Positions 5,620 through 53,689 of a stretch of 64,000 bases of DNA are shown piece after piece (within the stretch, counting starts at the first letter, position 1; each line of letters starts with the position of its first letter). A program made the position numbers and the translations under genes. Source of the DNA: Mustelus asterias (taxonomy: Eukaryota); NCBI RefSeq assembly GCF_964213995.1, contig NW_027590119.1, positions 992,001 through 1,056,000 on the forward strand, in the 5' to 3' direction. The notes beneath the pieces were generated by a model. It was not told where the DNA came from. It saw only the letters and a program-made list of their open reading frames with translations, and did not search any database.

Positions 5620-7955
5620 TTGAGGGCAAATCAACATCTGGCACGTGGGAGGCTTTCAAGTGTAAGTTGATAGGGATTCAGGACCGGCACATTCCTGTAA
5701 GGATGAAGGATAAGTATGGCAAGTTTTGGAACCTTGGATAACGAGAGATATTGTGAACCTAGTCAAAGAGAAAAAGGAAGCATTTGTCAAAGCTAGGAGG
5801 CTGGGAACACACGAAGCAAGTGTGGAATACAAGGAAAGTAGAAAGAAACTTAAGCAAGAAGTAAGGAGGGCTAAAAGGGGTCACAAAAAAGCATTGGCCA
5901 GCAGGATTAAGGAAACTCCCAAGGCTTTTTATACATATATAAAGAGCAAGAGGGTAGCCAGGGAGAGGGTTGGCCCACTCAAGGACAAGGGAGGGAATCT
6001 ATGCATGGAGCCAGAGGAAATGGGCGAGGTATTAAATGAGTACTTTGTGTCAGTATTCACCAAAGAGAAGGACTTGGTGGATGTTGAGTCTGGGAAAGGG
6101 TGTGTAGATAGTTTGAGTCATGTTGAGGTCAAAAAGGAGGAGGTATTGGGGTTCTTGAGAAACATTAAGGGAGACAAGTCCCCAGGGCCTGATGGGATAT
6201 ACTCCAGAATACTGAGGGAGGCAAGTGAAGAAATTGCTGGGGTCTTGAGAGAAATCTTTGTATCCTCACTGGCTACAGGGGAGGTCCCAGAGGGTTGGAG
6301 AATAGCCAATGTTGTTCCTTTGTTTAAGAAGGGTAGCAAGGATAATCCAGATAATTACAGGCCGGTGAGCCAAACATCAGTGGTAGGGAAATTATTGGAG
6401 AGGATTCTTCGAGACAGGATTTATTCCCACTTGGAAATAGGTGGACGTAATAGTGAGAGGCAACATGGTTTTGTGAAGGGGAGGTCTTGTCCCACGAACT
6501 TGATCGAGTTTTTCGAGGAAGTGACGAAGATGATTGAGGGCAGGGCAGTGGATGTTGTCTACATGGACTTCAGTAAAGCCTTTGACAAGGTCCCTCATGG
6601 CAGATTGGTGCAGAAGGTGAAGTCACATGGGATCAGAGGTGAGCTGGCAAGGTGGATACAAAACTGGCTCGGTCAAAGAACAGTAAGAAGTCTCACAACA
6701 CCAGGTTAAAGTCCAACAGGTTTACTTGGCAGCACTAGCTTTCGGAGCCCCAAGCTCCTTCCTCAGGTGAGTGAGTCACCTGAGGAAGGAGCTTGGGGCT
6801 CCGAAAGCCAGTGCTGCCAAATAAATCTGTTGGACTTTAACCTGGTGTTGTGAGACTTCTTACGTGCTTCCCCCAGTCCAACACCGGCATCTCCACATCA
6901 TCGGTCAAAGAAGACTGAGGGTAGCAGTGGAAGGGTGCATTTCTGAATGGAGGGCTGTGACAAGTGGTGTTCCTCAGGGATCAGTGCTGGGACCTTTGCT
7001 GTTTGTAATATATATAAATGATTTGGAGGAAAATGTGACTGGTTTGATTCGTAAGTTTGCGGACGACACAAAGATGGATTTGTGGATAGCGATGAGGACC
7101 ATCAGAGGATACAGCAGGATATAGATCAGTTGGAGACTTGGGCAGAGAGATGGCAGATGGAGTTTAATTTGGACAAACATGAGGTCATGCATTTTGGAAG
7201 GTCTTATACAGATAGGAAATGTACAGTAAATGGCAGAACCCTTAAGAGTATTGATAGGCAAAGGGATCTGGGTGTACAGGTACACAAGTCACTGAAAGTG
7301 GCAATGCAGGTGGAGAAGGTAGTCAAGAAGGCATACAGCATGCTTACCTTCATCAGCCGGGGCACTGGGTTTAAAAATTGGCAAGTCATGTTGCAGCTTT
7401 ATAGAACCTTAGTTAGGCCACACTTGGAATATTGTGTTCAATTCTGGTTGCCACACTATCAAAAGAATATGGAGGCTTTCGAGAGAGTACAGAAAAGATT
7501 TACCAGGATGTTGCCTGGTATGGAGGACATTAGCTATGAGGAGAGGTTGGAGAAACTTGGTTTGTTCTCACTGGAACGACGGAAGTTGAGGGCCGACCTG
7601 ATTGAAGTCTACAAGATTATGAGAGGCATGGACAGAGTGGATAGTCAGAAGCTTTTCCCCAGGGTGGAAGAGTCAATTACTAGGGGGCATAGGTTTAAGG
7701 TGTGAGGGGCAAGGTTTAAAGGAGATGTACGAGGCAGATTTTTTACACAGAGGGTGGTGGCTGCCTGGAACTTGTCGCCGAGGCAGGTAGTGGAAGCGGA
7801 TATGGTAGTGACTTTTAAGGGGCGTCTTGACAAATACATGAATAGGATGGGAATAGAGGGATATGGTCCACGGAAGGGTAGGGGGTTTTAGTTCAGACAG
7901 GCAGCATGGTTGGTGCAGGCTTGAAGGGCCTGCTCCTGTGCTGTAATTTTCTTTT
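5620..7955 (+). mobile_element. CR1 LINE ORF2 (5'-truncated) interrupted by a Penelope insert
   Basis: [37 protein letters not shown] motifs; CR1 3' UTR. Confidence 0.95.
6681..6900. mobile_element. Palindromic mini-Penelope insertion with two hammerhead motifs and a 12-bp TSD
   Basis: 88-bp inverted arms 6683-6770 / 6776-6863 (3 mismatches); TSD TCGGTCAAAGAA at 6669-6680 and 6901-6912; CTGAGGA..GGAGC/GCTCC..GAAA on both strands. Confidence 0.85.
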
Positions 7956-7956
7956 A

Positions 7957-8309
7957 GAACCATAGAACCATAGAAAATTACAGCTCAGAAACAGGCCTCT
8001 TGGCCCTTCTTGTCTGTGCCGACCATTTTATGCCTAGCCCCACTGACCTGCACTTGGACCATATCCCTCCACACCCCTCTCATCCATGAACCCATCCAAG
8101 TTTTTCTTAAATGTTAAAACTGACCCCGCATTTACCACTTTATCCGGCAGCTCATTCCACACTCCCACCACTCTCTGCGTGAAGAAGCCCCCCCTAATAT
8201 TCCCTTTAAACTTTTCTCCTTTCACCCTTAACCCATGCCCTCTGGTTTTTTTCTCCCCTAGCCTCAGCGGAAAAAGCCCGCTTGCATTCACTCTATCTAT
8301 ACCCATCAA
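7957..8309 (-). mobile_element. CR1 3' fragment
   Basis: TRGHGL..FFTQRVVGVWNELP and (TTCTATGG)n tail. Confidence 0.9.
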
Positions 8310-8619
8310 ATTTCTTTGACTATTTCTTTGACTATTGGCATTATTTTATAATGACGACTGCATTTGCTTTTTTCTTTGTATCTTGGAGCCTGCAAGCTCT
8401 CTTTCCGTTGTATTTGTGCACTATACAATGACAAAATTGAAGTGATTTGGACCCGCCAAATGCTTTCCATCAAAAAGCAGGTCATGAAGAAAGTCCAATT
8501 TTGGGTTGGCATCAATTTTAAGCTCACAAATGGTCCACCTTAAATTACCAAGGAATTGGCATTTCCTACTTCCTCGACCTGGTTTCTAATCACTGGCTGA
8601 ACTTTAACTTTTGTAAAAG

Positions 8620-8903
8620 CACAACCTCAGAATTAAGGGACAGTCCTTTAAAACAGAGATGAGGAGGAATTTCTTCAGCCAGAGAGTGGTGAATCTGAGG
8701 AACTCTTTGCTGCAGAAGGCTGTGGAGGCCGGGTCATTGAGTATCTTTAAGACAGAGATAGATAGGTTCTTGATTAACAAGGGGATCGGGGGTGATGGGG
8801 AAAAGGCAGGAGAATGGGGATGAGAAAAAATCAGCCATGATTGAATGGCGAAGCAGACTCGATGGGCCGAGTGGCCTAATTCTGCTCCTATGTCTTATGG
8901 TCT
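8620..8903 (+). mobile_element. CR1 3' fragment inserted in the R2-like element
   Basis: EMRRNFFSQRVVNL and tail GGCCTAATTCTGCTCCTATGTCTTATGGTCT. Confidence 0.9.
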
Positions 8904-9789
8904 TAAGGAGTCAAATTTTATTAATACTCTGATTCGAAGTAATGCATACCCGGCAAGAATTTTTTTAGCATTTGGAAAATCCGGAGGTAGTGAATTATGC
9001 TGAAGTTGCAACTCCGTGAACGAAACGATTGGACATATTTGAGGCTCTTGTCCTTTTGTCAAAAATGCCAGAATCCTCAGACACAATAAAATCTTGCATC
9101 AATTGGAGGAGTATGCACACACACATCATTTTAAAGTTATTTCAGGACCCCCAATAAGAACGGCCGATAAAACAACTGTATAAACCCGACATGCTGATCA
9201 GCAATGGGAAAGAAGTTGCGGCTGTTGATATCACAACAAGATTGAAGATAACATTAATTCTCTGGAAAAAGCATGGGATGAAAAGGTTAAGAAGTATCAA
9301 CATCCAACTAAAGAGATGAAACAACTGACAGGTGGCTCTACTGTGAAGTTTTTTGGGTTTATTATAGGTGCCAGGGAAAATGATGTACACAAAATGACCT
9401 GATGTTGAAATTCCTCAATATCCAGAAATTTAAATTGTTTGTGGAACAAATCTGCCGACTGGCATTGTTACAGACGGTAAAAATGTTACAGATTTTTACA
9501 GACAAATGATGTTGCCTCATTGTTAACCACTTTTAATTCTTTTTTTCTTTTTGTATGTTTTGACATTTTATATGCTGATTTGTATATCTTGATCTTGTTT
9601 CTTTTCTTTAATTCATATTTTATTTAATAAAGTTTACTCTGTAATTTTATAATATATGCAACATCAAAACACATATGAAATGATGAGGGATTTATACCAT
9701 TGTCAAGAGGTGTGTCTCATTAGCTCTGCATTACCCCGATTGGTTTTATTCTGCAGTTACAAAGGCATTAATTTAATATTTACAATTTT

Positions 9790-10509
9790 ATTTTTTTAGC
9801 CCTCGATGGGTCGCCGGCATCGGAGCATCGGGACCCTCCCGATGCATCCTCTGTCAGAACACCGACATGCCCTGCCCCTGAACGACCCTCCCCCCCACCC
9901 CCTTGGCAGAGATTCCCCCCCCCCCCAAGCCAATCACAACCCCCCCCCATGCAGAGCTCCCCTCTTGACAAGCAGCCCCCTTGCAAAAGCGCCCCCATCA
10001 TGTTAAATACCTCTCCAGGCCCCACCACCACACATGCCCCACCCCCTTGGCACCGTCCATGGTGCACTTAGGGCACGCAACCAGGCACTGCTACGATGCC
10101 AGGTGGGCATGCCAGTGTGGCATTGCCCAATTTGCACTGCCCAGATATTCCCCCAAATCACCTGGTGGTTTCTTTGGCCTCTGATTCCACCACCCCCCCC
10201 CCCCTCCCCTCCCCTCCACCCCCCCCCTCCCCCCTCCCCACCAGCGTGGTCCAAGCACCTGGTCCCCGCTGGTGAAGACCAGCAGTGATTCTCGTTGGTG
10301 TGATGTCTCAACCGTACCGAACCGAACCCAACAATCATATTGCAATGTAAGCAACTCTATGCAATTAGCCTTCACCCTCTTTCTGGTCACAAAACCATTC
10401 ACGCCGGCAAAACAGGGCCAGGAAGATAGCAATACTTTCGTCTCGCAAGCCTATCTTCCCAGCTCACCGCGCTGATCGAGCGGCAAGTCAAGCCGGTAAG
10501 ATCACCCCC
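9790..10509. mobile_element. GC-rich putative non-autonomous DNA transposon remnant (Harbinger/MITE-like)
   Basis: Sharp compositional boundary, poly-C tracts, TGCCA/TGGCA motifs, terminal-looking GGTAAGATCACCCCC; only one candidate TIR seen. Confidence 0.3.
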
Positions 10510-10699
10510 TGTATCTTTCTTTCACACTCAGACTGAACCAATCAGCCTTATTCTTGAGGCAGATTTCACAGAATATAACGTCTTCTGGCTGATCAAAAGG
10601 AAAGAAGAAATTCTTAGTTTAAACAGTTGCTGCTCGCTACACAGATTCCACAAGCGTTTAGGTGAATACAGTATTCATTTTGAAATAAAGGTCCAGTCA

Positions 10700-11330
10700 C
10701 GATAGAGTTGTGGAACACCTCCGCTCAGTCCACGAGCATGACCCTGACCTTCCGCTTGCCATTAGAATTCACCACCTTGCTCTCACACTCACATTTCTGT
10801 CCTCGGCCTGCTGCAATGTTCCGGAGAAGCCCAACACAAGCTGGACAAACAGCCCCTCATCTTCCGATGAGGCACTTTACAGCCTTCTGGACTCAACATG
10901 GAATTCAACAACTTCACCCCCTGAACTCTCTCCTCAATTTTGATTTGTTGTTTTTTGCCGAGTGCCAGTCTGCATCTTGTTTTTGTTTTTTTGCTTCCAG
11001 ACAGAGCTGTCCTTTATTCTGCCATTAACACTTACTCTGGACCAATGCTTTGTTTCTTTACTATAACCATTACCTCTCCCTTTGCCTTTTGTTCCGGGAC
11101 ATTTTTGTCATTTAATCTCACCCGCCCTCTAACCAATCCCTGACTTTCCCTTTTGTTCTACCTGCCCCTCCCCCCTTTCTCAGCAGCATCAAACCCATCA
11201 TATTTCTCCCTCTCTTTCGTTTTGAAGTAGAGCTGCATTGGACATAAAAAGTTATCTTTGTTTCTCTCTCCACAGATACTGCCAGAGCTGCTGCGATTTT
11301 CCAGTTCTTTCTGTGTTTATTTCAGAGCTA
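10700..11330 (+). mobile_element. Penelope-like element (second family) 3' fragment
   Basis: EHLRSV..DPDLP..HF GIY-YIG C-terminal similarity; tail CTCTCCACAGATACTGCCAGAGCTGCTG shared with ~53085 and ~54640. Confidence 0.65.
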
Positions 11331-11588
11331 ACTGTAGCAGTGGGAAAAACACTATTTATTATGCAGATAAAATAAATGTCCTTCATCAGCTTTTGTGGAT
11401 CATTCCAGTGGAAATGTGCTCTCCCAGGCACAAAGAGCATCAGCCCACTGGAAGCAAAGTCATGAGACTGTCCAGTCCAGCAGAAAGAAACCCCCCGACT
11501 CTCCCACTTCACCAACTGTCAGAATGAACATGGTTCAGTCCTGGGTGTGATTAACAGCAGCAAGAACAGCAGAATCCAACCCCTGTCA

Positions 11589-12011
11589 TCACTTGTGAAC
11601 TCGCTGGTGTTTCAGCAGGTGGAATGACTGAGTGAATCCCTTCCCACACACAGAGCAGGTGAATGGTCTCTCCCCAGTGTGAACTCGCTGATGTTCCCAC
11701 AGACTGGATGACGTTTTAAATCTCTTTGAGCAGTGAGAGCAGCTGAACGGTCTCTCCTCAGTGTGAATGCGCTGGTGGGACACCAGTTCTCCAGAGCTTT
11801 TGAATCCGCTCCCACAGTCAGAGCATTTAAACGGTCTCTCATTGGTGTGAGTGAGATGGTGTGTGCGCAGGTTCGATGAAACAGTGAAACCCTTCCCACA
11901 CACAGGGCAGCTGAATGGTCTCTCCCCGGTGTGAATGCGTCGATGAGTTTCCAGTGCAGATGGATATCTGAATCCTTTTACACAGTCCCCACATTTCCAC
12001 GGTTTCTCCAT
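11589..12011 (-). CDS. C2H2 zinc-finger protein, 5 fingers
   Basis: ATG at 12011 (MEKPWKC); acceptor TTACAG|GATATT at 12353/12352; decayed upstream fingers 12012-12160. Confidence 0.8.
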   Translation of the reverse strand: MEKPWKCGDCVKGFRYPSALETHRRIHTGERPFSCPVCGKGFTVSSNLRTHHLTHTNERPFKCSDCGSGFKSSGELVSHQRIHTEERPFSCSHCSKRFKTSSSLWEHQRVHTGERPFTCSVCGKGFTQSFHLLKHQRVHK

Positions 12012-12061
12012 GGTGCGGATGTCCTTGTGACTCTCCAGGTTAAACAATCAGTTAAATCTCA

Positions 12062-12169
<108 letters not shown>

Positions 12170-12656
12170 TCAGGTGTGTGTATCTCAGTGCATTTCTAGT
12201 CACAGCGATGTTTACAATCTTTTGAAGCCAAGAGGCCAAACAAACATTTCTCCTGCTAGATTCAAATCTTCAGGTCCCAAGAAATTGAGTCACTCTGTCA
12301 GATCTCGATGTGATGTTGGAGATTTCTGTCTGATTTCTCCTTGTCTAATATCCTGTAAGTCAATTTAGAAAAAACATCACAATTCAGAATACGATCGAAA
12401 TTCAAATCTACATTTCTAGTTTCTATGGAGCATTCATTAAAGACACAGTCATGGAGCATTAAACCTGCCCAGCAGGGCCTCCCGTATCAGCACACAGGCA
12501 GCTGCTTTGTGAGACTGCCAGCAGTACAGACAAGTCAGAGATAAGGGTGTCCTCAGAAGTGGGATTCATTGTGAAGGCTCAGGGACGGTTGATAAGATGT
12601 AGGAATTCTATGATTCTAATGAACATTCTTTCCTCTCTCATTCCCCAAAAGCTGTG

Positions 12657-12777
12657 AATCTCCATCCCACACACTCTCCCTCCATTCTCACTCTGCTGTA
12701 TCTAATATTCACCCTCCCAATTCTCCTGAAGGTGCTGATTGAGGCTGATTGACAGATCCATGCTCACTGCTTCCTGT
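12657..12777 (-). other. Second copy of the conserved micro-exon/uORF module
   Basis: Identical to 1033-1153; same position relative to the ZNF acceptor. Confidence 0.6.
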
Positions 12778-13304
12778 CCAGCACAGAAATCATAACAAAT
12801 AGGAGCTGCAGTCAGCATTCGGCCCATCGAGTCTGCTCAACCATTCATTGAGATTATTGGTTGATCTACCTCTGCATTATTTTCCCCACACTGTCCCCCA
12901 CATCCATCGATATCTTCAATATCTAGAAACCTATCAATCCCTCTCTTGAAAATTCTTGATGACTGAGGCTCTATAGTCCTCTGGGGTAGAGAATCCAAAA
13001 CATCACCACGTCCTTGAGTGAAGAAATCCTACCTCATCTGAGCTTTCTCTCCATTTTCCAGCCTGTTCCCAATAATTATTGACTCCCTTGTCATTCAAAA
13101 ACTGTCTAACTCATCCTTGAATATATTCAATCCCTCCACTGGTCCCTTTTGGAAGAGAAATCTAGACACTAACAATTCTCTGAGGGAAGAGATTGTTGGA
13201 AATATATAATATAGCTGCAGTCCAAAATTACACAGCCAGATATAATAAGTGTATTTTATTACAGAGCTATAAATAATATATCTAATCTGCACCATATAAC
13301 AACA

Positions 13305-13735
13305 GGGGAGCTGATAGCCTCGCGGTATTATCGCTAGACTATTAATCCAGAAACTCAGCTGATGTTCTGGGGACCCGGGTTCAAATCCTGCCACGGCAGA
13401 TGGTGAAATTTGAATTTAAAAACAAAATCTAGAATTAAGAATCTACTGATGACCATGAAATCATTGTTGATTGACCAGAAAAACCCATTTGGTTCATTAA
13501 TGTGCTTTAGGGAAGGAAATCTGCCGTCCTTACCCAGTCTGGCCTACATGTGACTCCAGAGCCATATGTGCGGGTTAGGTTGATTGGCCAGGTTAAAATT
13601 GCCCCTGAGATGCGTAGGTTAGAGGGATTAGCGGGTAAATATGTGGGGGTAGGGCCTGGGTGGGATTGTGGTCGGTGCAGACTCGATGGGCCGAATGGCC
13701 TCCTTCTGCACTGTAGGGTTTCTATGAGTTCTATA
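13305..13735 (+). mobile_element. tRNA-derived SINE family B fused to a V-SINE 3' half
   Basis: B-box GGGTTCAAATCC, body GGAAGGAAATCTGCCGTCCTTACC..GTGACTCCAGAGCCA, then V-SINE GTGCGGGTTAGGTTGATTGGCC. Confidence 0.75.
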
Positions 13736-13857
13736 ATATAAACTACCCAATTCTCCTGAAGGTGCTAATTAATGCTGATCGACACTCACCATTTCATGGT
13801 TCCTGACAGATCATAAGAAATAGTTAGAAATTCAGCCCACCAAGCTGTTCAATTGAA

Positions 13858-14295
13858 TTTTTTTTATTCATTCATGGGACATGGATGTTGCTGGCTGGCC
13901 AGCATTTATTACCCATCCCTAGTAGCCCTTGGAGGGCAGTTGAGAGTCAACCACATTGTGGTGGCTTTGGAGTCACATGAAGGCCAGACCAGTTAAGGAT
14001 GGCAGATTTCATTCCCTGAAGGACATTCGTGAACCAGATAGGTTTTTCCGACAATCGAAAGGGTTTCATGGTCATCAGTAATTTCTTAATTCCAGATATT
14101 TTTAATTGAATTCAAATTCCACCAGCTGCTGTGGGGTGGGATTGTTGTCGGTGCAGACTCGATGGGCTGAATGGCCTCCTTCTGTACTGTAGGGTTTCTA
14201 TGATTCTATGGCAGGATTCAAACCCGGGTCCCCAGAACATTAGCTGAGTTTCTGAATTAATAGTCCAGCAATAATACCACAAGGCCATCGTCTCC
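13858..14295 (-). mobile_element. SINE family B with an inserted V-SINE/CR1 tail
   Basis: Homologous to 13305 and 50737; 3' tail shared with the LINE at 58810. Confidence 0.75.
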
Positions 14296-15109
14296 CCATC
14301 AAGATCATGGCTGATCTGATTGTGATCTTAACTCCACTTTTCTTCCTGTCACCCTTGACTCCCTTTTCGATCAGAATTCTCTGTATTTTGAGTATATTTA
14401 ATGATGCAGCCTCCACTGCTCTCTGGGGAAGAGAATTGCAAAGACTAACGACCCTCTGAGGGAAGACATTTCTCCTCATCGCCATCAGAAATGGGGGACC
14501 CTTTATTTTGACAATCTGCCGACTAATTCTAGAATCCCCAACATTGGAAACATCCTCTCTTCATCTATACTAATCACTACCTCACAATCTGATGTCAATA
14601 CTATGATCACCTCTAAACTCCAGTCAATACAGGCCCAAACTTTCCTCACAAAACAATCCCTTCATCCCAGGTATCAGCCTGCAGATCCTTCTCTGAACTG
14701 ACAATGACAGAGAGGTGATCAGGGAGGGCAGAGCTGAAACAAAGCAATGGATGGACATGGATTCAGATCCACAGTAACGGAGTCACACCAGCCCCAGAGA
14801 TGTGGAACCAGAGTACAGATAACAGAGCACAGGACGAAAATTCAAAATTATAGGTAAATGTTCAATAATACTCACCTCTGAAACAATTTCACTATTTTCT
14901 CATTTAAAACCTGCGGCTGGAAAGATGTCAGAAGCACTGGAATCAGAGAAAAATTGCAATCTTCAAATGTTCCAACTCCCTGCAAAAGGAGATTACAAGA
15001 GTCAGGTGTCAATTGTGGCTTGAAATTAAGAGATACACATTTGTGGGGGGCTTGAGATTGCTGTAAAAATCCTCTTCTTCTAACCATCTGTAAAAGGAAA
15101 TTCCAAAAA

Positions 15110-15440
15110 TCACAGAATCTCTGCAGTGCAGAAGGAGGCCTTTTAGCCCATCGAGTCTGCACCAAGTTTCTAACAGATCACCTTTACTCAGGCCCTATAC
15201 CTGAAACCTGATGTACGTACATCACTAATCCTTTCCTTCCCCCTCATCTTGGGACACAAAGGGACAATTTAGCATAGTCGATCAACCCACTCTTTGGAGT
15301 GTGGGAGGAAACCAGAGCACCCAGAGGAAACCCACACAGACAGAGGGAGAATGTGCAAACTCATACAGACAATCACCCGAGGCTGGAATTGAACCGGGTC
15401 TCTGGCGCTATGAGACAGAAGTGCTAACCACTGTGTCACC
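15110..15440 (-). mobile_element. V-SINE (HE1-like)
   Basis: tRNA head and V-domain. Confidence 0.85.
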
Positions 15441-15654
15441 CCCAACAGTCATTTGTCCGCCCTGAATATAAATCCATAACATTCTCCCCTCCTGTTTTCT
15501 AGCATAAGATTACTTAAGATGGAATATACTTACATTGGAAGCTATTCAGACAAGGTTCATGAGCTGATTTCGGGCATGAAGAGGTCTGTTTTATGAGGAA
15601 AGGTTCGGCAGGGTGCATCTGTGCTCATTGGATTTTAGATAAATGAGATGTGAT

Positions 15655-16145
15655 TGTTGGAGTGAAATTAAGACTGTGACCTTTGAAAGTTAATGCGTAC
15701 GTGACTACAGGGACCGGCTGCGCCCAGCACTTATCCTGTGGTTAACAAAGATCATTCTGTTGCTGACTAAATAGCGAACTAACTTTTGAGCTACATCCTG
15801 TTATTGTATAAAAAATACGGAACAGACAAAAAAAACCAGACCGCGAGGTCCAGATGGTCCACTTAGTTTAAGATAAAGGGGAACTGAAACTTGTGGGTTT
15901 TTGTTAACGGTTGTTTTTGAAGGAATGCGATTGGAGGTCAATTGTTGCTCGGGGAGCCCAATTGGCTAAACACAGGTAACCACCCAAAGCTAACGACGAA
16001 GTAACCGCTAATGTCTATATGATTAAAGTGTATAAAAGACGGCGAGCCGCCGCTCCAAATTGAGAAGGTGAAAGGCAGCATCCATGAACCCGGCCTGTCA
16101 GTCAATGACTCAAACATTGTCTCTCCTGGTCACCCAAATCCTGCA
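15655..16145 (+). mobile_element. LTR-like fragment (U3 with CCAAT and TATA), 3'-truncated
   Basis: Begins TGTTGG where a CR1 remnant stops; ATTGG/CCAAT at ~15930-15965; TATAAAA at 16031; no closing CA or TSD identified. Confidence 0.4.
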
Positions 16146-16149
16146 GCTA

Positions 16150-17849: not shown

Positions 17850-18045
17850 CTATACCCGTAATCCCATACATTTAGCATGACCATTCCACCTCGCCTGCAC
17901 ATCTTTGGAGTGTGGAAGAAACCGGAGCACACGGAGGAAATCCACACAGACACAGAAAGAATGTGCAAACTCCACACAGGTTGAAATTGAACTCAGGTGT
18001 CTGGATCTGTGAGGCAGCAGTGCGATCCACCATGCCACCTTGCTG
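17850..18045 (-). mobile_element. V-SINE
   Basis: V-domain and tRNA head. Confidence 0.75.
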
Positions 18046-18716: not shown

Positions 18717-19749
18717 TCACTTGTCAACTCGCTGATGGCTCAACAGGTTGTATTTCTGAGTGAATCCCTTTCCACATTTGGAGCAGGTGAACGGCCTCTC
18801 CCCAGTGTGAATTCGCTGGTGGACAGTGAGTTGGGATGGTCGCCTGAACCCAGTCCCGCAGTGAGTGCACTTGAACGGTCTCTCATCAGTGTGACCACGT
18901 TGATGAGACATCAGATCGCTGCAGCTTTTATAGCATTTCCCGCAGTCTGGACATTTAAAAGGTCTCTCCTCACTGTGAACACGTTGATGGGACACTAGAT
19001 TGCTGGAACTTTTACAGCACTTCCCACAATCTGGACATTTGAACGGTCTCTCATCGGTGTGAACTTGCTGATGTGCCATGAGGTGTGATGTCAGAGTGAA
19101 TCCCTTCCCACAGTCGGTGCAGGTGAATGGCCTCTCCCCAGTGTGAATTCGCTGGTGTTCAGTGAGTTGAGATGACCACCTGAACCCAGTCCCGCAGTGA
19201 GAGCACCTGAACGGTCTCTCATCAGTGTGAACACGTTGATGGAACATTAGTTCCCTGGAACCTCTATAGCACTTCTCGCAATCTGGGCATTTAAATGGTC
19301 TCCTCAGTGTGGACACGTTGATGGAACATCACTTCCTTTAAACTTTTATAGCACTTGCCACATTCTGGACATTTACATGGTTTTTCCTCTGTGTGAACTC
19401 GCTGGTGTGTCTGCAGTGTAGATGACTGAGTGAATCCCTTCCCACACTCGGAGCAGGTGAATGGCCTCTCTCCCTTGTGAACTCGCTGGTGTGTCAGCAG
19501 GGTGGATGACTGAGTGAATCCTTTCCCACACTCAGAGCAGGTGAACAGCCTCTCCCCAGTGTTACTGTATTGGTGAATTTCCAGCTCAGACAGGTCTCTG
19601 AATCCTTCCCCACATTTCCATGGTTTCTCCTCAGTGTGACTGCACTTGTGTCTTGACAGAGCAGATGATTGTCTGAATCCTTGTCCACACACAGAACACA
19701 TGTACAGTTTTGCCCCATTGTGAACGATGCTTTTTCCTTCCATGCTCAA
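18717..19749 (-). pseudogene. C2H2 zinc-finger gene, ~12 fingers, frameshifted
   Basis: Two ORFs joined by a 2-bp loss in GAGAGA at ~19300 (HTEE-TI* instead of HTEERPFKC); finger 2 lacks DCG; acceptor TTTCACAG at ~19853; paralog of 57794-58612. Confidence 0.75.
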
Positions 19750-20454
19750 GGTTCAGTTATATTCAGGTTACCATAAATTGGGCGACTCTGTCAGATCCTG
19801 ATGTGATGTTTGGTTTGAGTTTCCTGACTGCAAATCCTCCCCTTCTAAAACTCTGTGAAATTGATTTAAAACAGCGAAAAGAGAGTGAGAGAGAATCCAC
19901 AAAAACACAAAGGCAGGTTGTGAAATTGAGCTGAATGAATCTGGTCATTTGTGGGGCCGGCGCTAGGAAAACATTACCATGGAAACTGCTGGATTGTCAT
20001 AAAACCTCAACTGGTTCACTAATACCTTTCAGGGAAGGGAATCTGCCATCCAGTCTGGGACTACACAAGGCTCTGGCCTCAATGGATGGAGAGAGGTGTG
20101 GGGGCAAAGGAGGGACTTAATGTATCTACAACTCAACCAGTGGTTTGAACCTTAGAACCGTTAACCTGCACACCGAGAAGGATCAGGGTAAGAGGTGTAC
20201 GTGAACACCATCATCTCCAAATTCCCTCCAATTTTACACACCATCCTCCCTTGTCTGACATCCAGGACTGGATGAGCAGTAATTGCCTTCGTTAAATATT
20301 GGAAGATGAAGGCTATCATCTTCAGCCCTGCAACAAATTCCACGTCCGAACCACTGACTCCATCTGTCCCCATTGCGACTGTCTGAGGCTGAACCGGAGT
20401 ATTCACAACCTCAGTAACATGTTTCATTTCAAACTGAGCTTCTAAACATATCCT

Positions 20455-21245
20455 CATAGAATCTACAGCACGGAGACAGGCCCTTCGGCCCAAACTGGTC
20501 CATGCCCACCAAAAATGCCCATGTAAGCTAACTCCATTTGGCCCATATCCCTCTAAACCTTTCCTATCCATGGATCTGTCCAAATGCCTTTTAAATGTTG
20601 ACAATGTCCCTGCCTCAACCACTCCCTCCAGCAGCTCATTCCACACCCGTACCACCCTCTGTGTAAAAAAGCTGCTCCTCAGGTTCCCATTAATTCATTT
20701 CCCTCTTAACTTAAACTTATGCCCTCTAATTCTTAATTCCCCAACCCTGGGAAAAAGACTGAGTGCATTCAACCTATCCATGCCTCTCACGATCTTACAC
20801 ACCTCTATAAGATCACCCCTCAATCTCCTACGCTCCAAAGAAAAAAGTCCTAGCCCGTCCAATCTCTCCCTATAACTTGAGTCCTGGCAACATCCTTGTA
20901 AATCTCTTCTGCACTCTCTCCAGTTTAATAACATCTTTCCAAATCAAGGTGACCAAAACTGAACACAATATTCCAGGTGCAGCCTCACCAAAGTCCTGTA
21001 CAACTGCAACATAGCCTCCCAACTTCTATACTCAATGCCCTGACTGATAAAGGCCAGCATGCCAAAAGCCTTCTTCACTGCCCTATCTACGTGTGACTCC
21101 ACCTTAAGAGAACCGTGCACCTGAACTCCAAGGTCCCTCTGTTCCACGATACTCCCTGAGGTCCTCCCATTCACCGTGAAAGTTCTACCTTGATTTGACT
21201 TTCCATGATGCAACACCTCACACTGATCTGTATTTAACTCTATTT
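20455..21245 (-). mobile_element. CR1 3' fragment nested in an old L2 (~20250-21830, +)
   Basis: RDLGVQV..HLEYCVQFWSP..; flanking L2 motifs IQNSAARVL..ITLV. Confidence 0.85.
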
Positions 21246-22525
21246 GCCACATCACCACCTACACGACCTATTTCCACCTCAGTGACATCACCCCACTTTG
21301 TCCTGGCCTCAGCTCACCTGCTGCTGAAACCCACATCCATTCCTTTGCTGCCTCTAGATTTAACTCTCCGAACAAACTCCCAGCCGGCCTCCCACATTCA
21401 ATCTCCCTGTAATCTTGGGTTGATCCAAAACTCTGCTGCCCGGGTGCTTATTCACATCAAGTCCAGTTCATCCATCACCCTTGTGCCAGCTGACTTATAA
21501 AGGCTTCCGTTTAAGAAGCAACAAAGCTTGAAAATTCTCATCCGTATTTTCTGCATGGCTGCAATCATTGCTCTCTCTGGAATCTCCTTCAGGCCTCTTC
21601 AACTCCCAATTTTCATCACTCCATCAGTGGTTGTCATTCTTTCAGCTGCTTAGACCCCGGGCCCTGCAATTTCCTCCTGAATCCTCCCCACTTCACTTTC
21701 CGCCTTGAAACCACCTCTTTGACCAAGCTGTCACCTGGCCTATTAATGTCCTTATGTGGCTCAGTGGCAAATGTTTCTTGGTAACATTTACTGTGAAGTA
21801 TCTGAAAGTTTTATGATATTAAAAGCAGAGCATAATTACAAACTATTGTCACTGTTCCTTCATCCTCACTGGGTGAGTAACCTGTAACTCCTTACCTAAC
21901 AGCATTGTGGCAGCACCTTCACCACACGGACTGCAGCGGTTCAAGGTCAAACGTCATCTTCCCCACAGGTACCTGGGGATGAGGAATATTTGCTGCTGAT
22001 CCAGTTAATGACACCCAAATCCCATGGGTATTTTAAAAATGTGTATCAGTACAATAGATAAAAAGCATCGACAGGAATACTTATTCCTTAAGCAATACCC
22101 TTTTACATTATAAGGGTATTGTTTTCAACCTGATCTCCCCTAGAATCTGGCTCCCTTGACAATTTTACATTGTGAAACTGAGTGGGTTCTGAAGCCCTTA
22201 ACGTTAAATCCAGCAGCTTCTCCTCCATCTCCACTTCAGCTCAAACTGATACAACAAAGGGAAGGAAATTGGACAAGACCCTGGAGAGAAAGAAAGCTAT
22301 GAGAATAGGGCAGAGGAGTGAGACTGATTGGTTTGTTCAACCCAGAGCAAAAGCATTGGCCTAACAAGCTAAATAACCTCCTGTATTGTAATCATTCGAC
22401 GGCTGCATGACAAATGAGCTGCACAAGATGCCATCTGCAGCTTTCAATTGGTCCATCTCTCTTTCTAGAATTCCTTCTGAGAGAAACCCCCGCCTGGGGG
22501 AAGCAGCAGTGGCCGTGTCTCCGCA

Positions 22526-23080
22526 GTGGAGTCCAGCCCTGTAACTCAGAGGGCTAAGGAAAAGAGGAGGAAGGCGGTATTAATCGGGGACTCGATGGTG
22601 AAGGGGACAGACAGGCGTTTCTGCGGAGGTAGGCGGGATTCTCGCATGGTGGTCTGCCTCCCTGGGGCCGGGATCCAGGATGTCGCTAGTCGCGTCCCGG
22701 AAATCCTGAGGTGGGAGGGAGAGGAGCCTGAGGTAGCGGTACATATTGGTACCGCTGATGTGGATAGGAAGGGAGAAGGGGTCATGAAAAGGGAGTACAG
22801 GGAATTAGGGAGACAGCTGAGAAAGAGGAAAGCAAAGGTAGTAATCTCAGGATTACTGCCTGTGCCACGGGAAGGTGAGGGCAGGAATGGAGTGAGGTGG
22901 AGGATGAATGTGTGGCTGAGGGACTGGTGCAGGGGGCAGGGATTCAGGTTCCTGGACCATTGGGACCTCTTTCGGGGCAGGGGTGATCTGTATACAAAAA
23001 ACGGGTGGAACTTGAATCACACGGGGACCAATATCCTGGCCGGTAGGTTGGCTAAGGCTACTGGGGAGAATTTAAACTAG
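22526..23080 (+). CDS. CR1 ORF1p SGNH/GDSL esterase domain (5'-truncated)
   Basis: IGDSMV, CLPGA, HIGT and LNHTG motifs. Confidence 0.85.
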   Translation: MESSPVTQRAKEKRRKAVLIGDSMVKGTDRRFCGGRRDSRMVVCLPGAGIQDVASRVPEILRWEGEEPEVAVHIGTADVDRKGEGVMKREYRELGRQLRKRKAKVVISGLLPVPREGEGRNGVRWRMNVWLRDWCRGQGFRFLDHWDLFRGRGDLYTKNGWNLNHTGTNILAGRLAKATGENLN

Positions 23081-23085
23081 ATAGG

Positions 23086-26000
23086 TTGGGGGGAGGGGAG
23101 CTAGAAGAGTTGACTAGGATCAAGGAACTAATTGATGGGGGGGAGGATGCAGGGGTAAGGGGAATTACAAAATTAATGATAGAGGAGAGGGTGCAAGTGA
23201 ATGAAGGCGGTAATTTAGATAAGGGAGTAGAGGGAGAGGGTGTTCGCGACTCATCAAAGCGGGTCCAGATAAAAGCTGGAATAAGGACACTTTGCCTGAA
23301 TGCACGAAGCATTCGGAACAAGGTGAATGAGTTGATGGTGCAAATCAGCACAAGTGGGTACGATCTAGTGGCCATTACAGAAACGTGGCTGAAAGGTGAC
23401 CAGGACTGGGAGATGAATATCCAGGGGTATCAGGCGTTTAGGAAGAATAGACAGGAAGGAAAAGGTGGTGGGGTCGCGCTATTAATAAGAGATAATATCA
23501 TTGGTAGTACTGAGGGATGACATAGGCTCTGAGGAACAAAACGTGGAATCGTCATGGGTAGAGATGAGGAATAGTAGAGGGAGAAAGACACTAGTAGGTG
23601 TGGTATATAGGCCCCCAAATAATAATGTTGAGGTAGGGAGGGCTATAAACAAGCAGATAAGGGATGCGTGTAAAAACGGAACGGCAATAATCATGGGGGA
23701 CTTCAACATGCACATTGACTGGCAGACTCAAGTCGGTAAGGGTGGAATGGAGGAAGAGTTCTTAGAATGCTGTCGGGATAGTTTCCTTGAACAGCATGTT
23801 ACGGAACCGACGAGGGAACGAGCTATTTTGGATCTGGTATTGTGTAACGAGGTAGGTAGAATTAAGGATCTTATTGTGAAGGACCCTCTTGGGTCTAGTG
23901 ACCACAATATGGTCGAATTTCTGATTCAGATGGAAGAGGAGAAAGTTTGGTCTCAAACCAGTGTCCTCTGTTTGAACAGAGGGAAATATGATAGGATGAG
24001 GGATGAATTGACTAAGGTAGACTGGGAGAGCAGGCTGGCAGGTAGGATAGCTGAGGAACAGTGGAGGATTTTTAAGGAGATCCTTTTCAGTTCTCAGCAA
24101 AAATATATTCCAGCAAAAAACAAGGATTGTAAGAAAAGGGAGAACCAGCCGTGGATAACGAAGGAAATAAAGGAGAGTATTAAAATAAAAACAGCTGCGT
24201 ACAGAGTGGCCAAAAATAGTGGAGAAACAAGTGATTGGGAAAAATTTAAGAAACAACAAAGAGAGACTAAGAAAGCGATAAAGAAAGGAAGGATAGACTA
24301 TGAAGCTAGGCTAGCAATTAATATAAAAAATGATAGTAAAAGTTTTTATAAATATATAAAAAGGAATAGAGTGGCTAGAGTGAATGTTGGACCCTTGGAG
24401 GACGAGAGGGGGGAGTTAATAGTGGGAAATGAGGATATGGCTGAGTCTTTAAATAAGTTTTTTGTGTCGGTCTTCACGGTGGAGGACACAAATAGTTTGC
24501 CAAATATTAACGATAGAGGGTTGGCAGCAGGAGAAATACTTAATACAATTAATGTTACCAGAGAGGCAGTGCTGGGTAGACTAATGGGACTGAAGGTGGA
24601 CAAGTCCCCGGGTCCGGATGGAATGCATCCCAGGGTATTGAAAGAAATGTCAGAGGTAATAGTGGATGCGTTAGTGATTATTTATCAAAACTCGTTGCAT
24701 TCTGGGGTAGTGCCGGTTGATTGGAAAACGGCTAATGTTACGCCGCTGTTTAAAAAAGGAAGGAGACAAAAGGCGGGTAACTATGGGCCGGTCAGCTTAA
24801 CGTCTGTAGTAGGGAAAATGCTGGAATCCATTATTAAAGAGGAGATAGCAGGGCATCTGGATAGAAATGGTTCGATCAATCAGACGCAGCATGGATTCAT
24901 GAGGGGAAAGTCGTGCTTGACGAACATGTTGGATTTTTATGAAGATGTGACTAGGGCGGTTGATGGAGGAGAACCGGTGGATGCGGTGTTTTTGGATTTC
25001 CAAAAGGCGTTTGATAAGGTGCCCCATAAAAGGCTGCTGAAGAAGATTAGGGCACACGGAGTTGGGGGTAGTGTGTTAAAGTGGATTGGGGACTGGCTAT
25101 CCGACAGGAAGCAAAGAGTCGGAATAAATGGGTGTTTTTCCGGTTGGAGGAAGGTAACTAGTGGCGTGCCGCAGGGATCGGTACTCGGGCCGCAACTGTT
25201 TACCATTTATATAGATGATCTGGAGGAGGGGACGGAGTGTAGGGTAACGAAGTTTGCAGACGACACAAAGATAAGTGGAAAAGTGAATCGTGTGGAGGAC
25301 GGAGAAGATCTGCAGAGAGATTTGGACAGGCTGAGTGAGTGGGCGAGGATATGGCAAATGGAGTATAACGTTGAGAAATGCGAGGTTATACACTTTGGAG
25401 GAAATAATAACAAATGGGATTACTATCTCAATGGAAACAAATTAAAACATGCTACCGTGCAAAGGGACCTGGGGGTCCTTGTGCATGAGACGCAAAAGCC
25501 CAGTCTGCAGGTACAACAGGTGATCAAGAAGGCAAATGGGATGTTGGCCTATATTGCGAGGGGGATAGAATATAGGAGCAGGGATGTCTTGATGCACCTG
25601 TACAGGGCATTGGTGAGGCCGCAGCTGGAATACTGTGTGCAGTATTGGTCCCCTTATATGAGGAAGGATATATTGGCATTGGAGGGAGTGCAGAGAAGGT
25701 TCACCAGGTTGATACCGGAGATGAGGGGTTTGGATTATGAGGAGAGGCCGAGGAGATTGGGTTTGTACTCGTTGGAGTTTAGAAGGATGAGGGGGGATCT
25801 TATGGAGACTTATAAGATAATGCGGGGGCTGGATAGGGTGGAGGCAGAGAGATTCTTTCCACTTAGTAAGGAAGTTAAAACTAGAGGACACAGCCTCAAA
25901 ATAAAGGGGGGTCGGTTTAAGACAGAGTTGAGGAGGAACTTCTTCTCCCAGAGGGTGGTGAATCTCTGGAATTCTCTGCCCACTGAGGTGGTGGAGGCTA

Positions 26001-26092
26001 CCTCGCTGAATATGTTTAAAGCGCGGATGGATGGATTCCTGATCGGTAAGGGAATTAAGGGTTATGGGGATCAGGCAGGTAAGTGGTACTGA
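23086..26092 (+). CDS. CR1 ORF2p (AP endonuclease + reverse transcriptase), frameshift at ~23500
   Basis: NARSI, ITETWL, GDFN, SDH; QGSVLGP, FADD. Confidence 0.9.
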
Positions 26093-26186
26093 TCCACGTC
26101 AGATCAGCCATGATCTTATTGAATGGCGGGGCAGGCTCGAGGGGCTAGATGGCCTACTCCTGCTCCTATTTCTTATGTTCTTATAA

Positions 26187-26652
26187 CAGTGGCAGAGTGG
26201 TTAGCACTGCTACCTCACAGCGCCAAGGACCCAGGTTCGATCCCCAGCTTGGGTGACTGTGCGGAGTCTGCACGTTCTCTCTGTGTTTGTGTGAGTTTCC
26301 TCCGGATGCTCCGGTTTCCTCCCACAGTCCGAAAATCGTGCTCTCCATTCAGAAACGTACCCTTCCCCTGCTACCCTCTGTCTTCTTTGACCGAGCCAGT
26401 TTTATATTCACCTTGCCAGCTCACCTCTGATCCCATGCGACTTCAACTTCTGCACCAGTCTGCCTCTTTCATCTGCCTCGTACACCTGTACGGGTGTTCC
26501 AGTTTCCTCCCACAGTCCGAAAGACTTGCTGGTTAGGCGCATTGGCCATGCTAAATTCTCCCTCAGTGTACCCGAACAGGTGCTCGAGTGTGGCGCCTAT
26601 GCAATTTTCAGAGTAACTTCATTGCAATGTTAATGTAAGCCGACTTGTGACA
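26187..26652 (+). mobile_element. V-SINE variant with internal insertion
   Basis: Head, V-domain duplicated around TTTCCTCCCACAGTCCGAAA. Confidence 0.7.
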
Positions 26653-26654
26653 CG

Positions 26655-29340
26655 AGCGCATCAAGGTAGATAAATCCCCGGGACCTGATGAAGTGTATCC
26701 CAGGACATTGTGGGAGGCTGGGGAGGAAATTTTGGGTCCCTTAGCCGAGATATTTGAATCATCAATAGTCACGGGTGAGGTGCCTGAAGATTGGAGAGGG
26801 GCAAATGTTGTGCCTTTGTTTAAAAAGGGCTGCAGGGAAAAGTCTGGGAACTACAAGCCTCACTGGCAATGACCAAGATTGGTGGCATAGTGGACAGCGA
26901 AGAAAGTTATCTCCAATTGCAACGGGATCTTGATCAATTGGGCCAGTGGGCTGACGAATGGCAGATGGAGTTTAATTTAGACAAATGCGAAGTGATGCAT
27001 TTTGGTAGATTGAACCAGGGCATGAGCCTTTGGCTTTGATCTTTGGGTCCTCACTGTCCACGGGGATGGTGCCAGAGGACGAGAGAGTGGCGAATGTTGT
27101 TCCTCTGTTTAAGAAAGGGAATAGAAATGACCCTGGTAATTATAGGCTGGTTAGTCTTACTTTGGTGGTTGGTAAGTTGATGGAAAAGGCCCTTAGGGAT
27201 GGGATTTACGACCATTTAGAAAGATGCGGATTAATCCGGGATAGTCAGCACGGATTCGTGAAGGGCAAGTCATGCCTCACAAATTTGATACAATTTTTTG
27301 AGGAGGTAACTAAGTGTGTTGATGAAGGTAGGGCAGTTGATGTCATATACATGGATTTTAGTAAGGCGTTTGATAAGGTCCCCCATGGTCGGCTTATGAT
27401 GAAAGTAAGGAGGTGTGGGATAGAGGAAAAATTGGCCGATTGGATAGGTAACTGGCTATCTGATCGAAGCTGCGGCTGTGTGGCTTTTGCTACCAAATAA
27501 ACCTGTTGGACTTTAACCTGGTGTTGTTAAACTTCTTACTGTATCTGATCGAAGACAGAGGGTGGTGGTGGACAGAACATTTTCGGACTGGAGGCAGGTT
27601 GCTAGCAGAGTACCACAGGGATCAGTGCTTGGTCCTCTGCTATTTGTGATATTTATTAATGACCTCGAGGAGGGGGCTGAAGATTGGATCAGTAAATTTG
27701 CTGATGACACCAAGATTGGTGGAGTAGTGGATGAGGTGGAGGGCTGTTGTAGACTGCAAAGAGACATAGATAGGATGCAAAGCTGGGCTGAAAAATGGCA
27801 GATGGAGTTTAACTCTGACAAATGTGAGGTGATTCATTTTGGTAGGACAAATTTAAATGTGGATTACAGGGTCAAAGGTAGGGTTCTGAAGACTGTGGAG
27901 GAAGAGAGAGATCTTGGGGTCCATATTCACAGATCTCCAAAGGTTGCCACTCAAGTGGATAGAGCTGTGAAGAAGGCCGATAGCGTGTTAGCTTTTATTA
28001 ACAGGGGGTTGGAGTTTAAGAGCCGTGGGGTTATGCTGCAACTGTACAGGACCTTGGTGAGACCACATTTGGAATATTGTGTGCAGTTCTGGTCAGCTCA
28101 CTATAAGATGGATGTGGAAGCGCTGGAAAGAGTGCAAAGGAGATTTACCAGGATGCTGCCTGGTTTGGAGGGTAGGTCTTATGAGGAAAGGTTGAGGGAG
28201 CGAGGGCTGTTCTCTCTGGAGCGGAGGAGGCTGAGGGGAGACTTAATAGAGGTTTATAAAATGATGAAGGGGTTAGATCGAGTGAACGTTCAAAGACTAT
28301 TTCCTCGGGTGGATGGAGCTATTACAAGGGGGCATAACTATAGGCTTCATGGTGGGAGATATAGGAAGGATGTCCGAGGTAGGTTCTTTACTCAGAGAGT
28401 GGTTAGGGTGTGGAATGAACTGCCTGCAGTGACAGTGGAGTTAGACACTTTAGGAACATTTAAGCGGTTATTGGATAGGCACAAGGAGCACACCAGGATG
28501 ATAGGGAGTGGGATAGCTTGATCTTGGTTTCAGATAAAGCTCGGCACAACATCGTGGGCCGAAGGGCCTGTTCTGTGCTGTACTGTTCTATGTTCGGCTT
28601 ACTCAGTTAATGGTAGGCATTGGGGAGAGTTACAGAACAAAGAGATCTCAGGGTACACGTTCATAGCTCCTTGAAAGTGGAGTCACAGGTGGACAGAGTG
28701 GTGAAGAAGGCATTCGGCATGCTTGGTTTCATTGGTCAGAACATTGAATACAGGAGTTGGGACATCTTGTTGAAGTTGTACAAGACATTGGTAAGGCCAC
28801 ACTTGGAATACTATGTACAGTTCTGGTCACCCTATTACAGAAAGGATATTATTAAACTAGAAAGAGTGCAGAAGAGATTTACTAGGATGCTATCGGACTT
28901 GATAGTTTGAGTTATAAGGAGAGGCTGGATAGACTGGGACTTTTTTCTCTGGAGCTGAGGAGGCTGAGGGTGATGTTATAGAGGCCTATAAAATAATGGG
29001 GGGCATAGGTCAGCTAGATAGTCAAGATCTTTTCCCAAAGGTAGGGGAGTCTAAAACTAGAGGGCATAGGTTTAAGGTGAGAGGGGAGAGATAGAAAAGT
29101 GTCCAGAGGGGCAATTTTTTCGCACAGAGGGTGGTGAGTGTCTGGAACCAGCTGCCAGAGGTAGTAGTAGACGGGGGTACAGTTTTGTATTTTAAAAAGC
29201 ATTTAGACAGTTACATGGTTAAAATGGATATCGAGGGATATGGGCGATATGCGGACAATTGGGACTTGCTCAGGGGTTTAAAAAAAAGGGTGGAATGGAC
29301 AAGTTGGGCCGAAGGGTCTGTTTCCATGCTGTAAATCTCT
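26655..29340 (+). mobile_element. Nested CR1 fragments: outer 26655-27020 plus 28597-29340, inner 27021-28596
   Basis: Outer reading HFGRLNQG resumes as TYSVNGR after the inner element's tail. Confidence 0.85.
27470..27541 (+). mobile_element. 72-bp Penelope tail insertion with a 13-bp TSD
   Basis: TATCTGATCGAAG at 27457-27469 and 27542-27554. Confidence 0.85.
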
Positions 29341-53657: not shown

Positions 53658-53689
53658 CTCTCTCATTGTGATTATTGGACAAGCAGCAA

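Follow-up and report, generated by a model that had tools for sequence, protein, structure and literature searches.

The window analyzed here is a stretch of 64,000 nucleotides from Mustelus asterias (contig NW_027590119.1, positions 992,001 to 1,056,000, forward strand). It contains two truncated CR1 copies that are interrupted by Penelope sequences, a near-intact CR1, and further Penelope copies and fragments:

11-286, plus strand: pLTR fragment near the window start, too near the edge for its target to be resolved
5729-6680, plus: host CR1 no. 1, ORF2 amino acids ~220-540, 5'-truncated (tblastn with the near-intact CR1 ORF2; Pfam RVT_1)
6270-6295, plus: second CR1 hotspot (reference nt 1218), an empty copy within host 1
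6665-6666, plus: left TG half-site of target 1, a Trp codon (sequence, motif)
6669-6680, plus: left copy of TSD1, 12 bp (sequence)
6683-6770, minus: inverted pLTR arm of insert 1 with the tail-less end (6683-6863 matches itself, inverted, at 95%)
6776-6900, plus: direct pLTR arm of insert 1 with a 37-nt tail (6864-6900)
6901-6912, plus: right copy of TSD1 (sequence)
6913-7888, plus: 3' part of ORF2 of host 1, interrupted by one stop and, near 7076, by a frameshift
23489-26092, plus: near-intact CR1 ORF2, the coordinate reference
27024-27469, plus: host CR1 no. 2, ORF2 amino acids ~393-540, 5'-truncated (tblastn with the reference ORF2)
27453-27454, plus: left TG half-site of target 2, a Trp codon (sequence)
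27457-27469, plus: left copy of TSD2, a 13-bp exact match with a 12-bp core at 27457-27468
27470-27541, plus: insert 2, a 72-bp tail-less pLTR 3' end (100% over 65 nt against the young copy, 40627-40691)
27542-27554, plus: right copy of TSD2 (sequence)
27555-28515, plus: 3' part of ORF2 of host 2
27556-27557, plus: right CA half-site of target 2, a Gln codon
39865-40730, minus: a young member of this Penelope family (97-99% identity to a long copy, likewise young)
49082-49156, plus: pLTR fragment with a 13-bp TSD, in a non-CR1 repeat

Both duplications given in the preliminary description proved exact, and the first base of each is, as it stated, position 2 of the Leu codon of N-W-L-x-x-R-R-x-R-V. 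With the inserts excised in silico, both hosts are in frame across this motif. TSD2 most likely owes its 13th base to a 1-nt extension by chance, so that both duplications represent the same 12-bp cut; the TSD centres lie at reference nt 1615.5 and 1616.0. The hosts had been described as divergent and the inserts as unlike in length and make-up. We found 68% identity between the hosts over 672 nt surrounding the site; insert 1 measures 220 bp (inverted arm, direct arm, and tail) and insert 2 measures 72 bp. The half-site that follows the right copy of TSD1 is CT; its subfamily has CA (an empty copy at window position 26383, and loose ends from four runs). The NWL-equivalent site of the near-intact reference (about 25094-25119) is empty.

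The reference ORF2 has the Pfam domains Exo_endo_phos_2 and RVT_1, that is, an APE-type endonuclease and an RT, and the hosts are 47-54% identical to it. We take the hosts to be CR1, a clade name carried over from the preliminary description and not derived from a tree. The proposal that one retroelement parasitises and inactivates another is not demonstrated by these copies: both hosts lack the 5' part, starting near amino acids 220 and 393 of the 867-aa reference, so no inactivation is demonstrated. Two other inserts had been said to hit different targets. The one at 49077 does lie in a non-CR1 repeat and has only one half of the target motif described below; the one at 286 is the fragment at the window edge. 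A TSD called for an insert at 16-292 is probably false.

The Penelope element has a single ORF, as in EN+ Penelope-like elements, of 775 aa from the ATG in one copy (L082), with open frames of up to 939 aa in others. Pfam finds RVT_1 in it (E 9.8e-11). A candidate C-terminal GIY-YIG nuclease was recognised by inspection (VYLIRCKKGCPEAWYIGE): two Cys lie between its half motifs, and His residues follow. The Pfam search of the ORF, with E values up to 1 allowed, gave no GIY-YIG model. Between RT and nuclease, the linker CHSNLCKTC fits the CX2-5CxxC that defines the Neptune linker in PMC8557442; this linker is common to Nematis too and is not decisive alone. The young copy in the window retains part of the RT thumb, the linker, and the endonuclease ORF (39865-40624), followed by an inverted tailed pLTR (40622-40730). 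Insertions show the EN+ Penelope-like arrangement of a pLTR, an inverted 5'-truncated copy, an optional tail of 30-40 nt, and a TSD; 106 were two-ended, and 183 of 417 ends carried a tail of 35-40 nt. By its sequence features we provisionally class the element as a Neptune-type Penelope; its family comprises over 80,000 tailed copies. Rfam applied to 6600-7000 returned only sub-threshold hairpin matches and no hammerhead ribozyme. A motif like a hammerhead core can be seen by eye in the pLTR.

Junctions were mapped to CR1 coordinates, as the preliminary description had proposed. The CR1 insertions were not uniform and formed a sharp peak at NWLxxR (17 of 52 CR1-mapped insertions). The same 5-nt interval of CR1 took 15 of 149 other TSD-resolved insertions, against 0.047% expected if uniform (binomial p 2e-30). 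The hotspot insertions are 0.07-3.8 kb long, run in either orientation, and lie in many CR1 subfamilies. Pattern counts across the genome, which do not depend on TSDs, gave 2,653 in-register matches and 102 off-register. Many of these 102 are longer-tailed insertions at the same CR1 site. The downstream side of CR1 is faced by 2,653 tailed and 2,654 tail-less ends, so the orientations are about equal. By these counts, the hotspot receives about 5% of insertions (~4,500 filled vs. 110,178 empty sites). Some 90-95% of insertions lie outside it. Site occupancy is ~4% on average and, by a rough estimate, ~17% in the subfamily of host 1; fill rates vary so much among subfamilies that age or location matters too. 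In contigs from four public runs, paralogues swamped the signal and the orthologous empty allele was indistinguishable.

A second CR1 hotspot, at nt 1218, took 6 of 151 insertions, with 308 filled (in one orientation) vs. 1,941 empty sites, and recurrent insertion sites were also present in other repeats. CR1 outside the two hotspots was not enriched (29 of 128 vs. 24.3% background, p 0.76), which rules out a general CR1 preference. The nuclease of Tx1L elements is of the APE type. A site-specific retroelement of the Tx1L type would be expected to have most of its copies at one site in the target element; the share at the site here, 15 of 149 in the sample and about 5% genome-wide, is far below that.

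Targets inside and outside CR1 have a spaced palindrome in common, (C)TG-N16-CA(G), with the 12-bp TSD at its centre and weaker preferences at neighbouring positions. Among exact 12-bp TSDs, the spacing was N16 in 46 of 58, N17 in three, and N14, N15, or N18 in none. At the two core positions of the 75 non-CR1 sites, C reached 90% and A 84%. In the CR1 hotspot, TG belongs to the W codon and CA to the Q codon six codons on, in W-L-x-x-R-x-Q, so most CR1 subfamilies carry the core; among 112 empty NWL sites, W was kept in 83 and Q in 88. The claim that the GIY-YIG nuclease prefers a site in the CR1 RT thus stood in part: the hotspot is real, but what is preferred is a short spaced palindrome that occurs in non-CR1 targets as well.

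A matrix trained on the 75 non-CR1 sites only, among which no hidden NWL site was found, placed NWL as the top CR1 position, with a predicted share of 11-15% vs. 15/149 observed. NWL came first in 40 of 40 bootstraps (5-95% range 6-24%), and again after retraining, with 16% from 38 non-repeat sites and 9% from 28 two-ended exact-12 sites. In a matrix from only 10 held-out sites (the held-out set being 40 loci), too small a number, it came third (0.4%). Filled NWL sites outscored empty ones (median 12.9, n = 14, vs. 10.0, n = 112; p 0.0007). The matrix underpredicts nt 1218 (at most 0.9% vs. 4% seen) and overpredicts nt 2067.5 (1.7% vs. 0). The TG-N16-CA core alone gives 80 of 6,812 sites (1.2%), so the prediction rests mostly on weak positions estimated from 75 sites. 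Since CR1 sites are over-represented ~1.3- to 1.5-fold in the background relative to the genome, the share predicted genome-wide (roughly 9%) lies above the pattern estimate. The cause of the hotspot looks general and not CR1-specific, the motif preference itself predicting the peak.

That insertion is near-random, and that the pattern arises because repeats tolerate inserts and TSDs are easier to call there, has a negligible probability in our assessment. A TSD candidate was obtained at only 280 of 417 ends, leaving a third (137) unclassified; but a 5-nt peak inside dead CR1 copies is beyond what selection can make, and the off-register control refutes such a bias. The copying of one or a few CR1-plus-Penelope composites, by retrotransposition of a filled CR1 or by segmental duplication, is very improbable too. 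Some junction sequences do recur often in pattern listings, and assembly-level duplicates are present (C306). The 17 insertions at the site, however, range from 72 to 3,764 bp, in both orientations and with several pLTR variants, and 28 more from pattern-selected loci (a few of which overlap the first set) span 122-1,371 bp with few repeats. Their hosts belong to many subfamilies with different 12-mers, the window hosts being themselves divergent, and a filled CR1 could not copy itself, as an insert in ORF2 breaks the frame. Lengths, orientations, and host subfamilies together led us to reject a co-amplified composite.

A less remote, though still unlikely, alternative is that selection tuned the nuclease to the conserved Trp and Gln codons of the CR1 RT, a huge and harmless landing pad, with the other insertions as off-target events of a tolerant enzyme, like those of homing endonucleases. 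The best CR1 position of the real matrix (15.3%) was reached by none of 150 column-permuted matrices (median 2.4%, maximum 14.1%) and by 2 of 100 that kept the TG/CA core; N16 was the best of 13 spacings tried (others 0.5-8.3%); and NWL sites made up 31 of the 69 best-scoring background positions. Since W and Q dictate TG and CA, the target is proof against synonymous change. Yet 90-95% of insertions land elsewhere, and the permutation p values need a look-elsewhere discount, as CR1 was picked for its peak and forms a quarter of the background. NWL was still best in 29 of 100 permuted matrices that kept the core, and nt 1218, where no W and Q codons hold the site in place, seems no less hot per copy. 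There is a weak sign that the motif matches CR1 better than chance. Under a general palindrome, the better-than-permuted match would be luck. We likewise consider it doubtful that the element is a parasite of the dominant retroelement, with a homing-endonuclease-like dimer tuned to codons inescapable by silent mutation and occupying, in certain subfamilies, as much as a sixth of the sites or even more.

The two inserts are probably independent truncated Neptune-type copies at a true hotspot, where a GIY-YIG nuclease, likely a dimer, reads a loose palindrome that CR1 matches unusually well. The two subunits would each nick a single strand, 2 nt 5' of the respective CA, and so leave 12-nt 3' overhangs; nick positions, overhang polarity, and dimer state are inferred. 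Each overhang may serve as the primer for one of the two RNA start points (tailed and tail-less) of reverse transcription, and such dual priming would place outward-facing pLTR ends on both sides, whichever way round the insert lies relative to CR1. Recognition of CR1 itself would be unnecessary, with over 110,000 empty copies as targets.

The Neptune report describes EN+ elements like this one, with a single ORF of RT and then a GIY-YIG-type nuclease, two Cys in its core, a CX4CX2C linker, pLTRs, and inverted truncated copies (PMC8557442). There the linker is hypothetically tied to a microsatellite bias, whereas here we find a spaced palindrome, a fixed 12-bp TSD, and a hotspot at a CR1 codon pair. 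The resolved sites here are not microsatellites, although TSD calling would overlook such sites and 137 of 417 ends gave no TSD. In the Anolis carolinensis Poseidon PAc, both strands are cut and extended, two RT start sites bound a tail of 30-40 nt, and a dimer is predicted, all resembling the shark element (PMC11167929). PAc differs in preferring AT-rich DNA and 5'-ATT-3', in belonging to a clade without the Cys linker that the shark element has, and in that the accessible text describes no spaced palindrome or fixed stagger (PMC11167929). The Adineta vaga Penelope likewise has inverted pLTRs, a 31-bp tail, short TSDs, and one copy nested in a non-LTR element; its TSDs are 8-10 bp, and the sections consulted report single nested cases with no recurring site or consensus (PMC3846280). 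Repeated insertion into a mobile element is also described for Xenopus Tx1 into Tx1D and Tourist into Tourist, but here only about 5-10% of insertions are at the site, the motif is used genome-wide, and the nuclease is putatively GIY-YIG (PMC6719617). Homing endonucleases whose sites encode critical amino acids, such as the GIY-YIG enzyme I-TevI, are similarly sequence-tolerant, with key bases on conserved host-ORF codons; they have one long cognate site, in contrast to a core of two dinucleotides with most events elsewhere (PMC3984707). The likeness is one of analogy and not of membership. Neither a palindromic target for Penelope nor a hotspot in CR1 was described in the literature searched (subscription papers, Repbase entries, and supplements were outside its scope), nor in the available portions of a 2026 retrozyme preprint and the Dada paper.

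Target choice and cutting by Penelope nucleases are barely known, the one reconstituted element being described only as AT-rich-preferring. This family gives a precise, testable rule (half-sites 16 bp apart, a 12-nt stagger, and priming from both ends), for which the CR1 site is a ready substrate, and the rule would also account for the head-to-head layout of Penelope insertions. In genome analysis, an insertion point shared by CR1 copies should therefore not be read as evidence of common descent. Were the preference adapted to CR1, one retroelement would be tracking the invariant codons of another.

The two insertions occupied the same target position in two CR1 copies (hosts 1 and 2), as the preliminary description had proposed. 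Their target-site duplications (TSD1, 6669-6680 and 6901-6912; TSD2, 27457-27469 and 27542-27554) were both exact, with centres at nt 1615.5 and 1616.0 of the reference, the near-intact CR1 ORF2 of the window (23489-26092). They represent one 12-bp cut, the second with a 1-nt chance extension. Once the inserts were removed, both hosts regained an in-frame CR1 RT through N-W-L-x-x-R-R-x-R-V (the NWL site). The hosts were indeed divergent (68% identity over 672 nt), and the inserts were unlike each other:

6681-6900, insert 1: two pLTRs (the ends of the Penelope element) in inverted arrangement, one side bearing a 37-nt tail
27470-27541, insert 2: 72 bp of pLTR end without a tail, 65 nt of which match the young copy at 40627-40691 exactly

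The idea that these insertions inactivated CR1 was not supported. Host 1 starts near aa 220 and has one frameshift and one stop, and host 2 starts near aa 393. Both lack ORF1 and the endonuclease and therefore were most likely dead already when Penelope inserted, judging from the 5' truncation usual in LINEs. In the near-intact CR1 (22481-26092), an upstream ORF precedes 867 aa of open ORF2; the target site of this copy is empty and reads CAA, not CAG.

By the definitions in PMC8557442, the element is, on its sequence, of Neptune or Nematis type. Its 31-nt end motif occurred 165,414 times without mismatch in the 3.68-Gb genome. The ORF fragment 39901-40623 had 55,842 candidate matches; the top 150 were 97-100% identical, with open frames of up to 939 aa. 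One long ORF contains an RT (Pfam RVT_1, E 9.8e-11), a CX4CX2C linker and, read by eye, a motif resembling GIY-YIG that encloses two cysteines; Pfam reported no GIY-YIG family for it. The same fragment had a 100% identical protein match, in the same 300-aa frame, on another contig (C306:52759-53481), which suggests that this region of the window is duplicated or has a haplotig copy there. A separate, older (91%) Penelope nuclease fragment lies at 34967-35208, and at one sampled locus (L106) a young copy had apparently inserted in a pLTR belonging to a different subfamily of this element. The young ORF in the window breaks into a zinc-finger exon at 39865. Repeated coding and tandem units in the window were:

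1415-2233, 11589-12047, 18717-19752, 39218-39892, 41790-43172, 49392-50672 and 57794-58612: cluster of C2H2 zinc-finger arrays, with a recent expansion at 41795-42600 (84-bp units 99% identical)
53051-53746, 56624-57269 and 40705-41187: tandem arrays with units of 87 bp, 10-22 bp and 38-42 bp, respectively

The sample comprised the window plus 190 loci (1.61 Mb): contig C1 contributed 70, from its first 2.6 Mb, and the other 120 surrounded young copies spread over many contigs. A TSD candidate was present at 280 of 417 element ends (234 of the 417 tail-less), giving 174 candidate insertions; removal of 21 one-ended candidates that failed validation and of two duplicates left 151. This removal was conservative, because four distinct one-ended candidates were, by eye, at the NWL site. 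CR1 ORF2 was the target of 52 of the 151 insertions, 17 of them at nt 1613.5-1617. Mapped on CR1, the junctions were thus not uniform and peaked at NWL: even without the original two, 15/149 fell there, against 0.047% under uniform insertion (p 2e-30). The share was 6/54 on the C1 stretch and 9/93 around young copies. Among 33 entries (about 31 insertions) from 40 held-out loci, one was exactly at the NWL site and a second was read as this site with a mutated TSD. The hotspot is real. Copying of a CR1-Penelope composite was rejected on the basis of the insert lengths (72-3,764 bp; 122-1,371 bp in 28 inserts resolved from pattern-selected loci), the use of both directions, the several pLTR variants and the duplicated 12-mers, which belong to many CR1 subfamilies.

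The insertion sites followed a bipartite rule. In 58 exact 12-bp TSDs, T occurred at -4 (90%), G at -3 (93%), C at +3 (90%) and A at +4 (88%); the spacing was TG-N16-CA in 46 and N17 in three, and N14, N15 and N18 were absent. The 75 non-CR1 sites obeyed the same rule (C 90%, A 84%, then G 51% and G 44% two further on). A score matrix built from them was applied to 1.2 Mb of unmasked background, which is richer in CR1 sites (35.8 per Mb in total, 46.9 per unmasked Mb) than the genome (29.9). Its top CR1 position was nt 1615.5, with a predicted share of 11.4-15.3%, and this position came first in 40/40 bootstraps (range 6-24%) and with training on 38 non-repeat or 28 exact-12 sites. Filled sites scored higher than empty ones (p 0.0007). 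Several findings weigh against this prediction, the CR1-rich background among them: a matrix from only 10 held-out sites placed NWL third, and the dinucleotide core alone predicted 1.2% there (80/6,812). The second CR1 hotspot, at nt 1218 (6/151 insertions), was moreover under-predicted and nt 2067.5 over-predicted. In host 1's subfamily, nt 1218 had 308 tailed ends in one orientation genome-wide versus 1,941 empty copies. Other sites recurred in a more distant LINE family (three insertions) and in non-CR1 repeats:

6270-6295 of the window and loci L013, L037, L039, L075, L097 and L151: nt 1218 hotspot, near-perfect outer palindrome
Loci L048, L049 and L122; L115, L125 and L281; L035 and L178: recurrent sites outside the CR1 hotspots, most with TG-N16-CA

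At NWL, the TG opens a Trp codon and the CA a Gln codon lying six codons further on, which puts them exactly 16 bp apart. Among 112 empty sites, W was kept in 83, Q in 88 and both dinucleotides in 80, the maximum over all CR1 positions; codons flanking the core also match weaker matrix positions. The peak is made by conservation and copy number. The proposed preference for a site in CR1 RT stands as a sharp NWL peak, but outside the two hotspots CR1 ORF2 received no excess (29/128 insertions vs 24.3% background, p 0.76), and non-CR1 sites share the rule. A nuclease tuned to CR1, with a fit beyond luck, would resemble homing endonucleases, whose target sites encode critical residues (PMC3984707). 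We consider such tuning unlikely. The best CR1 position of the real matrix (15.3%) was reached by 0/150 column permutations and 2/100 core-fixed ones, and N16 was the best of 13 spacings for CR1 fit; this weak support must be discounted, because CR1 was selected on account of its peak and represents a quarter of the background, and because most insertions land outside the NWL site. Most likely, the hotspot is a by-product of the general bipartite rule.

Outward-facing element ends flanked 106 insertions on both sides, and both orientations were used. In the proposed mechanism, a nuclease dimer would nick both strands, each at a point 2 nt 5' of that strand's CA. The resulting 12-nt 3' overhangs would both serve as primers, with reverse transcription beginning at the tailed start from one and at the tail-less start from the other. 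We modelled this on anole Poseidon, which cuts and extends both strands in vitro, starts at two sites that bound the tail and is a predicted dimer (PMC11167929); it differs in preferring ATT. Mobile elements that insert into other such elements have been described (PMC6719617), and the Penelope element here falls outside the site-specific class of these. In the openly accessible main texts searched, neither a palindromic Penelope target nor a CR1 hotspot turned up.

Genome-wide, the CR1 downstream 8-mer followed 2,653 of 81,448 tailed ends in register (102 more were off register, many being longer tails at the same site), and 2,654 of 166,255 core ends matched the CR1 site in the tail-less form; these counts are lower bounds, the 8-mer being kept in 16/17 sampled sites. 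True in-register CR1 sites made up 25/30 and 26/30 of the fetched hits. The NWL share is about 2.7% and 2.5% per orientation, or about 5% of insertions, and about 4,500 filled sites versus 110,178 strict empty ones give a fill of about 4%. By eye, among the matches listed on contig C1, host 1's 12-mer followed 3/100 tailed and 16/100 tail-less ends, and another 12-mer about 13 tailed and one tail-less; orientation thus tracked CR1 subfamily among these matches, and may arise if the overhang of the target pairs over 1-3 nt with the start point on the RNA. Fill also varied with subfamily: for host 1's, a rough figure from the C1 matches listed is about 500 filled versus 2,518 empty (about 17%). 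In such heavily filled subfamilies, an effect on CR1 source copies is possible.
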